Shown here one piece after another: positions 22,901 to 28,269 of a stretch of DNA of 64,000 bases. Positions within the stretch are counted from its first letter, which is position 1; the number at the start of each line of letters is the position of its first letter. The notes beneath the pieces were generated by a model. The model saw only the letters and a list, made by a program, of their open reading frames with translations. It had not been told where the DNA came from and did no database searches. The stretch comes from Curvularia clavata (Eukaryota). The DNA lies in the NCBI GenBank assembly GCA_023920165.1, contig CP089275.1, forward strand, positions 1,240,001 through 1,304,000, written 5' to 3'. Both the position numbers and the translations under genes were made by a program.

Positions 22901-24207
22901 TCGGAGGACAGATACTGGTCGTTACAGGCATCATGATTTGCCTGTTCCTTCCGATTCTGATGTCGAAGATGGTCGCCAGGCTGAGGAGTTGCATCCCAAG
23001 TTTTTTTGGTGGAGTCGAATGTATCAAGATATCCAGTTGAACGGGCTCGAATGCGGACTTGCAAGCCCCCACGAAAACGGAAGTATCTATGGTTTTAGAT
23101 ACTCCGAGCCTGGTGCGGTACTTACAGATGTGGTATTCCGTTTCGATAACCTTGATACAGGGATGACTGTGTCTGTGGCATATTGCAGAGACTAGGACTG
23201 GGGGACATGCGAGCGAGTTTCGTTGAACTCTTGGACCATGCTTGCGCAGCAGTTCGAACGTAGCTCTGATTCGTGTGTTGAACCGGAGGGTCCGAATGCA
23301 TCCGAGTGGATATTTTTCGCATGATCTAGTTGTCCGAGATTTGTTCGTACCTAACAGATCAACAAAGGTACCTGTTTTCTCATGGTTTCTTCCATCATTC
23401 TGTGTTCAATCTATCCTGACGATTCCATTTCTTCATCAAAGCTCGTCCTTCCCATGTTTCCAGCTCATCGTAGGAATATTCGTATATCCAGGATCCAGGG
23501 TTGGAACATTTTAGGTGTTTGCGTCTGATCAGTGATGAAGGTACATCTGTGATATGTTCGAAACTTCGGTCAGCAGGCTTCGCACAAGTGGTCGAGGGTG
23601 GATTATAAGACGGTGATGACATTGGGGACCCGACGACGTCCGGGCGCTAATGTGGTTCGCGCTTACCACCTGCAGAAGCAAATTCTCCGCACTCCGGACA
23701 TGCTTCCCCGAGGGTCAAATGATGCAAACTGTTCTTCCAATCAAAGTTTGCGCCAGTCTGAAAATACTGGTTCTGGAGAATCTAGAAGGATATGTGGAAG
23801 TGTACACTTTGTGCAGCCCGACGCTGATTGGTCCTCACTTGATGTCGCTCAGGCACTCCCGCAACGGAACTGGAAAAAGGGGATCATAATGAAGTCATGA
23901 TATCTCAAGAATTTTCTCGAGATTAATTATATCATCGAAGAAAATCGGAAATGATATCAGCTTGAGTAACAACCCCCATCAGGACTAAAAAACTGTAGTC
24001 AAACTTTGAAAATTTCTGTCAAGATTGTCACTTATTCAACTGTTACTGTGAATGAGGGAAAAGAACCGAAAGAAGAGTGGACATCATTTTGAATTATCAT
24101 TAATGTTTATCATAGAGTCTTGATCTTGTCTCCGAGACTGATAACAAAGTCGAGATCAATCCGTCAATCGTAACCGTCTCCCGTAGCCATCATAGCAGAA
24201 TGCGCGC

Positions 24208-25284
24208 TTAAGAAGGAGGCGAGGTAGGCTCAGGGACGCCAGGAGGACAGTGCCTAAATATTCTGTTAGCTAAGGTCAGGTATAAGGAGTCGACAAATTT
24301 CTTACCAGTGGTCGTTGTGGGGCTCGCAGGCCTCAGCGGGTGAAGCTGCCCCGGTGGCTGAAGCAGATGCCGTGACAGAGGTAGCAGAGGCACTAGCAGA
24401 GGCAGAGGGAGTGGCGGAAGGAGCAGCAGCAGATGAGGCAGAAGAAGACTCCTCAGCCGCGGCGTAGCGACCAGGGCAACCAACACCAGGAACAGCAATG
24501 TCATAAGCATAGACCTCAAGCGCAAAGTACTGGATGGTGTCGCTGTCCCTGGCAGAGAAGGTTGCATTGTTCTTCGCAAGGTTGATGACACTGGGGTACT
24601 TCTCCTCTTCCTCGTTGGTATAATGCTCTACCACACCCTCACCGACAGGGGGAAGGTGGAGGAGACGGTGTATAAGATCAGAGGCCCAATAGAAGTTAGT
24701 AGGGCCGTTGGCGACATTGTAGCCATGCATGCACATGGCCTCGAGAGGCTTGCGGACTTGGTAGGAGAGGTCGCAAATGACGGTCTCTGACGAGGCGTTG
24801 GCTCCACGCCAGTGACCAGCCCAGCCTATTTCTTGTTAGTCACTGGCGAATCTTCTATTTGGGTGGAATGCTGCTTACCACTCTGGTGGCAGTTGCCGTC
24901 AATGTCATCGCATCGGAAGAGAATGCCCGCCTTGTCGCCGTCGGCGATCTTGGTGTACCAGCCGATTGGCTCACCGGTGGGAGAGTCGCCAAAGTATTTT
25001 GTGTAGATCTGGGACTCGTTGCCCCAGCGGAGGATGTGGTCGCGGGCATGACGGGCAAGGATGATTGCCTCGTCAAGACCTTTTTGGAGCATCGTGCGTT
25101 GAGTAGCATTGCAAGATGCATGGATGGGGAAGCTGTCGACAGCACCCGTGTTCCATGTGGAAGAACCGACAGCGATCTGCGCGTTTTCGCTGGTGGTGAT
25201 GGTAAAGGTGTCGCGGGGCGCGATAGGTCCAGCCATGACGGCGGAGGCTCCGAGGAGCACAAAGGCAGCAGCACGAACAGACAT
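24208..25284 (-). CDS. PRA1: Secreted zincophore, Pra1/Asp f 2 family (HRXXH domain)
   Basis: Signal peptide; motifs FPIHASCNATQ, HARDH, GWAGHWRG, HRLLH and QYFALEVYAYDIAVPGVGC; Ser/Ala linker; C-terminal CEPHNDHWHC. Exons 25284-24879, 24825-24306 and 24253-24208. Confidence 0.93.
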
Positions 25285-26496
25285 GGTGGAGTTGACTTGA
25301 GGCTCTTGATTGAGTCTTGGGTGTTGAGGTGAATTCAATGGAGGGCCCGAGACGCTGGATGCTGGACGAGGGTACTTGGAGTCAAACTGCAGGCTCTTTA
25401 TATCCCACCAGACTGCTCTCTTACTAGTGAACGATGCTCGTCTCGGTACTCACATACCGAGCTCGCTCTAGATAGAACCGCCGAGAACTTCTGGCAAAAA
25501 TGCCTCCGCCATGCAGGTGTATACCTGGTCTACCAGCAGTCTGGACAGGTCAATGCTACACTACATGGGCCTAGAGGAGAATTCAGTACTTGGCCTGACG
25601 TATAACCAGCGTGGTAGAGCTTGGCATTCAGCCGCGTGGGGAATGAGAGCACTGTTTATCCACTCAAGAGGTTGATTCGGGAGTGGTTAAGTACCATGAT
25701 GGGCGCCCAATAGAGAGAAATTCTCGCTCCCAAGAGACAGACTGCCGGGAAAGATGGCTCCATTAGGGAAAACCGACAGAATCATTGGGGGCCGTACACG
25801 TTTTTCGAAAAAGCTCTCACAAAATGCGTATTGTTGAGTGACATACTATCACGGTGCTGAAGAAATGGAGACAGTCACGCGCACCTGGAACGAGTCACAA
25901 AAGCTGTTGGTACACTAAACTCAATATACTGTCAAATGGCTTAGCGGAGTGTCATTGAGGTTTTCAAACCAGAAGAATGGATATGCAAACCAGGAATGCC
26001 CCCTAGTAGGGCCATTCTTTGGGCATGTCAACTGTCAACTGTCAGTGTAGTTTTGGTTACGGAGGCCGTAAGTGAGGACCCACTAATCCCACGATAGAGG
26101 ATCTCCACCAACACCCACCGCCAAGACGTGTACCACCTGCTTGCGGAGAAATGCCCGCATATCCACAGCATACGCTTAGCGGTATTGGGCTTGTCGAAAG
26201 ACAGAGAGCAGGCGGTGATTCGATGTGCGCCGAGACTTCGGTAAACGCCAAGGGAAATCATCCAACACGGTACTCAATGCCAAGCGCGGCCATGGCGCCT
26301 CCCGTATGCATGAGCAGGATTGAAAGGCATTTCTTAGGCTCGGGCGGCTCTGCGCCGTGTCTTCACGGCTCTTCTGCTCCGCTCCGCTCATACCACCGAG
26401 GCTTGCCTATAATATATCAGCCAGGCGCGCGGGTCTCCTTTCACCGCACAAAGACCAGTCGACTCTCTGATCAGGCACATTCGTTATTCTCAGACG
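25285..26496. promoter_or_regulatory. Bidirectional PRA1-ZRT1 promoter with six PacC/Rim101 GCCARG sites
   Basis: GCCARG at 25589 and 25620 (minus strand) and at 26120, 26247, 26279 and 26420 (plus strand). TATA-like elements at 25397-25402 (minus) and about 26408 (plus). Confidence 0.7.
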
Positions 26497-28105
26497 ATGC
26501 CCTCGACTATGCGTTCCGCCCTCTATACTGCGGCCCTGCTTTTTGCAGGCACCGTGGCTGCTCAGACGGCAACGGTGACCGTCACAAAACCCGTAGCCAA
26601 CCAGACAACGACAGTCTTCACTACAACTTCGGCTCCCACATTTACTGCCGTGTCGGACTGTCACCCTCACTCGACTGTTCTGTATGTGTCCTTTTCTAGG
26701 TTTGAAACGAAGCCACTAGGCTAACCTAGACAGATGGTGCATGGTTGGCAACGAGGAGTACCAGGTATCTGGACCTACGGCCACTGAGGAGTTCCAATCA
26801 CAATACACGGACTGTCACTCACATTCATCTGAAATGTAGGTATCGGTGACTTAGCGTAAGATATGGCACTAACCCGTTTAGGTACTGTGTCGATGACGCT
26901 GGCGAAGATGTAAAGATCCTCATCAATAACACAGAAGAATCGCACAGCACAGAAGAAGACTCGCATTCCCATGAGGAGCCCGAAGGAGGCTCTGCGAGTG
27001 AGTCCGGAACTGCTGGTCAGCACTGCCACGAACACGCTGGTATCCCCCACTGCGTTGGCGGAAGCTCTGGACCAGTATGCGAAGCCCCTGATCGTGATTA
27101 TAACATTGGTCTCCGGGTCGGTCTTCTCTTCGTCATTCTCGTCACAAGCGCTATCGGCGTCTTCACTCCAATCCTGACCAGGAAGTTCAACCTCGTTGGC
27201 GATGACAACATTGTTTTTGTCGTCTTGAAGCAGTTCGGTACTGGTATCGTCATCTCGACAGCTTTCGTTCATCTCTTTACCCACGCTGATCTCATGTTCT
27301 CGAATGAGTGCCTTGGCAGACTTCAATATGAGGGCACTACCGCTGCGATCTTCATGGCTGGTTTGTTTCTTTCCTTCTTGGTAGACTATCTTGGCGCCCG
27401 TTTTGTTCAGTGGCGCCAGGGCAAGCATGCAGGCAACAGCACCGAGGTGGCAGCTGTCACAGGCGACAGCAAGACCGGTGATGTCTCTTCTGCCCCCAGC
27501 TCGGATCATGGGTCTAGCCATGGCCATGGCGGGCATGCACATGGGCCTATGCACAAGGCTACGCCCATGGAAGAGAAGATCAATGTCATGAACCTTGAGG
27601 CCGGTATTATCTTCCATTCAATCCGTAAGTATACGCCGTTCTTCATACCGCTATCCAGCTAACACCTCTCTCAGTAATTGGCATCACCCTAGTCGTAGCT
27701 AGCGATGCCTTCTTCATTACCCTCTTCATTGTCATCCTCTTCCACCAAATGTTCGAAGGCATCGCACTCGGAACCTGCATTGCCGAGCTCCCTAAAGCCG
27801 CAGCAGGCACGTTGAACAAGCTCATCATGGCTGGTATCTTTGCGCTCATCACGCCCATTGGCATGGCTATTGGCATTGGCGTGCTCGACCACTTCAACGG
27901 CAGTGATCCTAGCACGCTTGTTGCTATCGGAACGCTCGATGCACTTTCGGCTGGTATTCTTGCATGGGTCGGTATTGTGGAGATGTTGGCGAGGGACTGG
28001 ATGCATGGCAAGCTCATGAACGCGAGTCTAACGAGAACCGTGTGTGCGATGATTGCCCTGATTGCTGGACTTATTCTCATGAGTGTGCTTGGCAAATGGG
28101 CATAA
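26497..28105 (+). CDS. zrfC: ZIP-family zinc transporter with extracellular His/Cys-rich N-terminus (Zrt1/ZrfC type)
   Basis: Signal peptide (ATG 26497 or 26509) and three CHxH-x5-C motifs. ZIP motifs KQFGTGIVISTAFVHL, EAGIIFHS and HQMFEGIALG, a His-rich loop, and C-terminal LGKWA. Introns 26682-26733, 26836-26881 and 27625-27674. Confidence 0.95.
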
Positions 28106-28269
28106 GAAGATTTTAGAGAAAAGGATCGGATTTTATGATGCCAAAGTCATGACTTTATGTAACTGCATTGAGAGGAGACGCATTTGGACCCGGTAGATAG
28201 ATAGTGTTATGGTTTATACTGACCTTGAATTACCCCTCGGCATCGTAGACACATAGCTAGCCAATGTGC

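Follow-up and report, generated by a model that had tools for sequence, protein, structure and literature searches.

The window analysed here, a 64,000-nucleotide (nt) stretch of Curvularia clavata contig CP089275.1, contains a head-to-head gene pair for zinc uptake, with a Pra1/Aspf2-type zincophore on the minus strand and a ZrfC/Zrt1-type ZIP transporter on the plus strand. Our main finding concerns the transporter, whose extracellular N-terminal region carries repeated CHxHx5C motifs, many of which are interrupted, in the window and in relatives from several fungal classes, by an intron at one and the same position. The ZrfC ectodomain unit was very probably multiplied by tandem duplication of an intron-bounded segment, with many lineages later losing single introns. 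The zincophore ends in a tail that we call type B and that is cut at the corresponding position. As an overall explanation, we consider it likely that duplicated transporter units stand beside a type-B Pra1 tail that is a separate unit, with an intron that was either inherited from a ZrfC-type module or gained on its own. An earlier note, made from the sequence of the window alone, had proposed a single module spread by exon duplication or shuffling within and between the two genes; the proposal is well supported within the transporter and only partly between the genes, where the intron is confined to one clade and no similarity extends beyond the anchor residues.

Judged by its sequence, the pair is the conserved fungal zinc-scavenging pair of the already known aspf2-zrfC / PRA1-ZRT1 system. 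The two genes diverge from start codons at 25284 (minus) and 26497 (plus), and the same head-to-head Pra1/ZrfC layout recurs in 23 of 46 related metagenome loci. Splicing was checked with Logan contigs of four public runs (X1, X2, X6 and X9) from four studies, aligned to positions 24100-28200, and no interpretation was drawn from stretches of this region that lack contig cover in some runs. All five splice joints of the window are present in contigs, each in one to three runs. Run X6, recorded as an RNA library, is identical to the window without a differing letter, and X9, which derives from a relative with 90-99% identity, uses the same joints as the window. All introns have GT..AG ends, and a CTAAC-type branch site is found in each of the five in the window.

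The transporter gene (26497..28105, plus strand) consists of exons 26497-26681, 26734-26835, 26882-27624 and 27675-28105, which upon splicing and translation give a product of 486 amino acids. Pfam domain PF02535 (Zip) was found on exons 3 and 4 (E 1.6e-19 and 8.2e-23), and exon 3 is 83% identical to a Bipolaris sorokiniana protein. The window protein shows the family trait of three CHxHx5C ectodomain motifs, the last one beside the first membrane helix. Intron 1 (26682..26733, 52 nt, phase 2, skipped in X2, X6 and X9) cuts codon 8 of the first motif, CHPHSTVL|WC at amino acid 55, and intron 2 (26836..26881, 46 nt, phase 2, skipped in X6 and X9) cuts codon 8 of the second, CHSHSSEM|YC at amino acid 89. 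Between them lies a symmetric phase 2-2 exon of 102 nt (26734..26835) that comprises the end of motif 1 (WC), a linker and codons 1-8 of motif 2. The membrane-proximal third motif, CHEHAGIPHC (27024..27053, amino acid 144), is unsplit in the window, and its equivalent is split in other loci. Intron 3 (27625..27674, 50 nt, phase 1, skipped in X6) is located in the membrane domain and has no relation to the motifs. Counting the one in the Pra1 tail, the window holds three motif introns, each after nucleotide 23 of a 30-nt motif, i.e. in codon 8 and phase 2. The earlier note had read these three introns (24305-24254, 26682-26733 and 26836-26881), their motifs and the symmetric exon from the letters alone, and all of them are borne out by exact joints in RNA-derived contigs. 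Transporters of this type are characterised by induction under zinc limitation at neutral or alkaline pH; spliced zrfC RNA exists in such contigs, which do not give the growth conditions of the runs concerned.

Repeated motifs are common in transporters of this type. Among 120 ZrfC-type proteins retrieved with exon 3, 117 have at least two CHxHx5C motifs (range 1-6), of which the first two are usually spaced by 34-36 residues, the final one mostly being CHFHAGVEHC; the conserved flanks differ among three module classes. Gene structures were obtained from JGI metagenome contigs scanned with a ZrfC-type alignment, giving 46 loci that represent 29 distinct groups and are assigned only by their nearest named protein. 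A script recorded all contiguous motifs and every GT..AG pair of 35-160 nt that restores a motif at any of its 29 internal positions. The 29 groups contain 91 motifs, 54 contiguous and 37 split, and every one of the 37 is cut after nucleotide 23 (codon 8, phase 2). At least one split motif occurs in 18 of the groups, with up to four paralogous copies carrying the intron. These motif introns have canonical donors (GTAAGT in 7, GTGAGT in 6, GTATGT in 5, and others) and are 46-113 nt long, mostly 46-56. Wherever a locus reaches the 5' end, removing the nucleotide-23 introns alone leaves a single open reading frame (ORF) from a signal-peptide-like Met into the first membrane helices, so that no further ectodomain intron is needed. 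Splits affect every paralogous motif position including the membrane-proximal one (L027/28, L030-32, L035, L036-38, L042, L043, L045), and the internal exon measures 102 nt in all nine distinct Dothideomycete-like loci that have both introns (L001, L022, L023, L025, L027, L030, L033, L035, L037). By nearest named protein, the intron-bearing loci include Pleosporales, a Patellaria-like fungus, Penicillium (89% identity), a Eurotiomycete-like locus with 4/4 motifs split, a Pseudogymnoascus-like locus and two Tricharina-like ones (Pezizomycetes), and split motifs therefore cover Dothideomycetes as well as Eurotiomycetes-like, Leotiomycetes-like and Pezizomycetes-like loci. No introns were found at the motifs of the yeast-like ZrfC loci among the 46.

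The exact position in all paralogous copies and across several fungal classes, together with an exon context that does not resemble a splice site, argues for duplication of an intron-bounded unit followed by losses. At 36 junctions the surrounding exon sequence is not the AG|G proto-splice site (G at -1 in 1/36) and codon 8 is variable. Exon duplication would leave the same intron position and phase in paralogous repeats along with symmetric exons, as found here, and the position is kept in orthologues of distant lineages. The extracellular N-terminal region of ZrfC is a series of tandem units of ~34-36 residues with one CHxHx5C site each, and an internal exon encodes 'xC - linker - CHxHxxx(x)' where the motifs are cut in codon 8. 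Duplication, which we infer as the mechanism, would most economically have taken place early in, or before, Pezizomycotina, with the introns then being lost piecemeal. The spread within the transporter that the earlier note had postulated is thus upheld in 18/29 distinct loci of several classes. When introns were mapped onto relatives, the position proved constant in ZrfC (37/37), and in Pra1 the intron was found only in Pleosporineae, which supports the claim of the note for one gene and not for the other. Its proposed null of random intron placement amounts to simple arithmetic under uniform placement: the second ZrfC intron would fall on the same site of one of the two other motifs with a chance of ~2/1460, and one of the two Pra1 introns on the sole matching site in ~970 nt with a chance of ~2/970, both being our own post hoc values and not formal p-values.

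Two features of the scan call for caution over the uniformity of the transporter result. The scanner detects only splits that restore C[HQ]xHx5C, and split candidates at offsets 1, 13, 16, 18, 21, 27 and 28 were judged by eye to be artefacts and discarded, a decision with a subjective element. These candidates shared their start with a contiguous or nucleotide-23 solution or implied an implausible peptide; they were exon-skipping-like joins, TG|Y ends of contiguous motifs, and GTNGAG within GVEH codons.

Degenerate and off-length units also occur in ZrfC ectodomains, namely the 11-mers CHTDSDGTEHC and CHEHDGEGVRC (L021) and CHAHGATEIFC (L008), the 9-mer CHSHSTTYC (L002), and CHVDGSVSYC and CHMDHSVSYC (L010, L013). 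The first of these resembles the canonical Pra1 motif, CHTHxxGxxHC, so the x6 spacing is not exclusive to Pra1.

In the AlphaFold2 model of the B. sorokiniana ZrfC homologue, each motif lies in a beta hairpin, with strands 53-60/63-68 and 88-94/97-101 for motifs 1 and 2 (predicted local distance difference test, pLDDT, 75-86) and 147-151/154-158 at lower confidence. The intron site falls in the second strand of the hairpin in this model; exon units and structural units are therefore offset, and the structural repeat would consist of a hairpin and an additional third strand. A short hairpin is likewise predicted for the Pra1 type-B tail (pLDDT 80-85), so that the comparison of motif structures envisaged by the earlier note yields predicted hairpins for both genes. 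Each CHxHx5C site of ZrfC is a putative zinc site, with zinc binding taken from published peptide work; the available text of PMC9780748 gives PNCHTHEGGQLHCT (Aspf2) and KKCHFHAGVEHCVDDNNHDA (Zrt1) as zinc-binding peptides.

The zincophore gene (25284..24210, minus strand) has exons 25284..24879, 24825..24306 and 24253..24210 including the stop, and splicing and translation give a product of 323 amino acids. Pfam domain PF13933 (HRXXH) was found on both large exons (E 2.1e-42 and 7.9e-55), and the domain is 89% identical to a Bipolaris victoriae protein over 248 columns. For both genes Bipolaris thus supplies the nearest named proteins, which places the window in Pleosporaceae. Intron 1 (24826..24878, 53 nt, phase 1, skipped in X1, X6 and X9) lies within the Gly codon preceding WAGHW, and intron 2 (24254..24305, 52 nt, phase 2, TG|GTAAGA...TTTAG|G, skipped in X1 and X6) in the Trp codon of CEPHNDHW|HC. 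This type-B zinc motif (24247..24328; 23 nt, intron, 7 nt) starts at amino acid 302 and is followed by PPGVPEPTSPPS and the stop, in place of the canonical C-terminal CHTHxxGxxHC, which the window protein does not have. Membership in Pra1/Aspf2/Zps1 is not excluded by this non-canonical tail, since the published family description allows for motif loss. The C-x2-H-x5-C spacing that the earlier note ascribed to Pra1 is thus right for the tail in the window, while the usual Pra1 motif is C-x2-H-x6-C with 11 residues. From the literature on orthologues, the protein is predicted to be secreted, to bind zinc and to re-associate with the transporter.

Pra1 homologues were collected by a full HMMER search that used exon 2 of the gene, and longer proteins by a word-indexed search; they fall into two kinds by their tails. 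Among 216 stored proteins, 71 have type A, CHTHxxGxxHC at the extreme C-terminus, 40 have type B, CxxHx[DN]HWHC followed by PxGVxEPTxPP, and none has both. Of the 67 long Pra1 hits, 29 carry type B, and those among them with a name all come from Pleosporales families of Pleosporineae (Bipolaris, Exserohilum, Curvularia, Decorospora, Clathrospora, Didymellaceae, Phaeosphaeriaceae, Plenodomus, Cucurbitaria, Coniothyrium and Dothidotthia). Type A is found in Periconia, Westerdykella, Cladosporium, Elasticomyces, Colletotrichum, Exophiala and others. A maximum-likelihood tree of the domain only places the type-B Pleosporineae as a clade (100/98) nested among type-A lineages (type-A Dothideomycetes). 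Outside Pleosporineae, type B turned up in Protomyces lactucae-debilis, in a metagenome protein 76% identical to it, in a protein with a domain 68-74% identical to Colletotrichum, and in two further unplaced fragments.

Near-identical type-B tails (P0175, P0337, P0275/P0171, P0129, P0206) are attached to Pra1 domains that are 40-50% identical to Pleosporineae ones, in Protomyces, a Colletotrichum-like fungus and two unplaced cases; the tail is more conserved than the domain, and its spread is patchy. This patchy distribution suggests either repeated exchange of tails or a long-lived alternative form. On our reading, type B may be a mobile zinc unit in its own right, by which the canonical tail was replaced at the root of Pleosporineae. 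With a gap of one residue (C..H.D..HC), an alignment of type B to type A is also plausible, as a reading and not a test. A homologue search with the Protomyces tail (residues 246-287) returned 5 candidates and 2 hits, both of them Pra1, the search being insensitive for other families; a look-up of the type-B tail in the ESM Atlas with PF13933 skipped gave no usable hit, and a profile scan of genome contigs with the Pra1 alignment gave 20 pattern matches and no relative. Neither motif has a Pfam family, and weak matches of the motifs to DUF2284 (E 0.1-0.4) were taken as chance.

The two tails also differ in gene structure, as seen in 23 Pra1-bearing loci, four of which (L005, L020, L021, L033) end at a contig edge before the tail. 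The intron after nucleotide 23 is present in the type-B motif of the window and of three of the four other distinct type-B loci (L027/28, L030-32, L035), and the x5 type-B tail and this intron occur together only in Pleosporineae. Protein models ending in ...DHW (Exserohilum, Plenodomus, Macroventuria and two Logan ORFs) are compatible with the same intron, given that TGG TAA results when it is left unspliced; a further model, which reads through the intron in frame, is compatible with it too. Type-A genes have a phase-0 intron one codon before the first Cys in three of eight distinct loci (minus strand of the loci: L009 7592..7542, the Penicillium-like L042 980..929, and L043 645..599) and none there in the other five. 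The whole CHTHxxGxxHC motif of these three is on a terminal mini-exon of 13-20 codons, an arrangement that fits, on the gene structure, a late addition of the motif as a separate exon.

The type-B intron (window 24254-24305; L027, L030, L035) has GTAAG right after TG, so that an unspliced message runs into a stop directly behind the Trp and would give a protein without the last His-Cys and the Pro-rich end. Several public Pra1 gene models are truncated exactly at that Trp.

How the Pra1 tail came to share its intron position with the transporter admits of two main explanations. The one to which we give even to slightly better chances is an independent, lineage-specific gain of the intron into a pre-existing type-B motif, the match to ZrfC being a coincidence. 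Type-B tails found outside Pleosporineae apparently lack the intron, the clade that bears it lies within a set of type-A lineages, and there is no sequence support for homology to the ZrfC modules. On the other hand, the exact match in codon and phase is improbable if placement is random, and absences elsewhere are weak evidence because the 3'-most intron is the one most readily lost. Moreover, the non-Pleosporineae type-B genes are known as proteins and not as DNA, and were taken as unspliced ORF calls through DHWHC from their odd N-termini and sources rather than from a DNA reading.

The full hypothesis of the earlier note, in which one ancestral codon-8 phase-2 unit gave rise to both the ZrfC repeats and the Pra1 type-B tail by exon duplication and shuffling, seems possible to us at somewhat less than even chances, and we are similarly tentative about shared descent of motif and intron between the type-B tail and the ZrfC units. 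Spacing, intron codon and phase are the same in both genes, and the old, widespread ZrfC intron means that a donor existed in the neighbouring gene, while the Pra1 match is expected in only ~2 of 970 cases under uniform placement. The ZrfC module-1 consensus is matched by Gly at +3 and Glu at +6 behind the last Cys, hairpins are predicted for both units, and the patchy occurrence of type B over Pra1 lineages, with a like unit repeated in a non-Pra1 protein of Beauveria, indicates that such units move. The available text on that Beauveria protein also makes it an alternative possible donor of the type-B unit.

Several observations weigh against a shared origin of the Pra1 and transporter units. 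The intron is not at this site in Pra1 orthologues generally: it is restricted to Pleosporineae type B, it is missing even from the contiguous type-B motif of L022/24 (whose transporter is 97% identical to Alternaria conjuncta), and it is probably absent from the Protomyces-like metagenome protein and the Colletotrichum-like contig, as judged by contiguous ORF-style calls. The canonical type-A motif is unsplit in 8/8 distinct loci. Nor does similarity reach beyond the metal ligands, since 31 unique type-B tails, scored without the C/H/C anchors against position-specific scoring matrices of the three ZrfC module classes, did no better than their own shuffles (fractions 0.19, 0.53 and 0.08). Type B has no His at motif position 2, a residue conserved in all listed ZrfC-type motifs but one (CQLH in P0049). 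Pra1 and ZrfC intron sequences of four genomes are not alike (z -1.0 to 1.3), which says little on old events, and the coincidence was chosen post hoc. A still wider version, with one ancient C-x2-H-x5-C zinc-hairpin unit and its codon-8 phase-2 intron as a mobile module that seeded the ZrfC repeats, the Pra1 type-B tail and repeat proteins like Beauveria BBA_01910, appears unlikely to us.

It is highly improbable that all motif introns, those of ZrfC included, arose by repeated parallel insertion into an intron-attracting coding sequence. With a motif this short and conserved, a process directed by sequence would indeed strike the same place; yet the 36 junctions with their variable codon 8 are unlike a proto-splice site, and the 54 contiguous motifs of comparable sequence have no intron. 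Wrongly predicted splice sites, which would make the shared position an artefact of annotation, can practically be dismissed as an explanation: nothing was found in their favour, exact joints occur in up to three runs per intron, among them the window-identical RNA library X6, and the spliced proteins match annotated homologues across the junctions.

The contigs also point to a candidate transcript on the opposite strand of the transporter. In run X1, a 3757-nt minus-strand contig at 25454-28200 spans the entire zrfC gene with the zrfC introns retained and reaches the intergenic region, at a depth of 33 compared with 4.6 for the Pra1 mRNA contig of the same run. It lacks a 52-nt minus-strand intron in the intergenic region (joint 26084->26031, skipping 26032-26083, GTGGGT...ACAG), and the same joint occurs in X2. 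This looks like a candidate non-coding transcript, either antisense or upstream, that covers zrfC and the shared promoter, with the reservation that contigs prove neither a single transcript nor its strand, and such a transcript could be regulatory.

Clear cases of exon duplication or exon shuffling are few in fungi. The ZrfC ectodomain would be a case of exon duplication in which the same intron is retained, across fungal classes, at as many as four zinc sites. The two Pra1 zinc tails can now be told apart, the canonical CHTHxxGxxHC with its own terminal mini-exon in some lineages and type B with its Pro-rich extension, and motif-based surveys may have counted the latter as 'motif lost'. Of the steps in this virulence-linked uptake system, the hand-over of zinc by the Pra1 tail to the ectodomain of the transporter is understood least, and both zinc binding and hand-over in the present pair are presumed. 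The hairpin-type units on both sides and their constrained residues provide concrete peptides and tail swaps for testing. If a single mobile module were true, ligand and receptor would literally share their metal-handling part.

The synteny and age of the Pra1/transporter gene pair are described in the available text of PMC3386192. According to the portion available of a 2025 paper in Nat Commun (PMC12663325), the Pra1 C-terminal CHTHXXGXXHC was gained in Dikarya, coinciding with transporter synteny, and some ascomycetes have 'lost' it; neither 'intron' nor 'exon' is used in the paper. The type-B tail may be among these 'lost' cases. A literature search that did not extend to Amich et al. 2010 or to the supplements of PMC12663325 turned up neither the intron-per-motif architecture nor a type-B tail described for Pra1, in line with the remark in the earlier note of not being aware of such a description; for the transporter, the reading as exon duplication seems to be new. 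The sole full-text match for the string DHWHC was a paper on Beauveria bassiana (PMC12099005).

Tandem duplication of symmetric-phase exons is a general mechanism, and the ZrfC locus resembles it in the 102-nt phase 2-2 exon of the window and in an intron position that recurs in every repeat. It differs in that the ZrfC exon borders cut through the zinc motif and not between structural units. The Beauveria protein, BBA_01910, is presented in the available text of PMC12099005 as a secreted protein of 209 amino acids that contains two repeats of the CEPHEDHWHCPAGVP type; zinc binding is predicted for these repeats, and they match the type-B unit almost letter for letter. In contrast to Pra1, it is described there as an uncharacterised repeat protein of no known family, and that text does not mention a Pra1-type domain; type B therefore looks like a free-standing unit that also exists outside Pra1, as far as this source goes. 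The closest known systems are aspf2-zrfC of Aspergillus fumigatus and PRA1-ZRT1 (ZRT101) of Candida albicans, which likewise are divergent pairs with a shared upstream region and combine an HRXXH secreted protein with a ZIP transporter that has a Cys/His-rich N-terminal ectodomain. Compared with these, the window Pra1 ends in the x5 type-B motif with a 12-residue Pro-rich extension instead of CHTHxxGxxHC, and the membrane-proximal motif of the window transporter reads CHEHAGIPHC.

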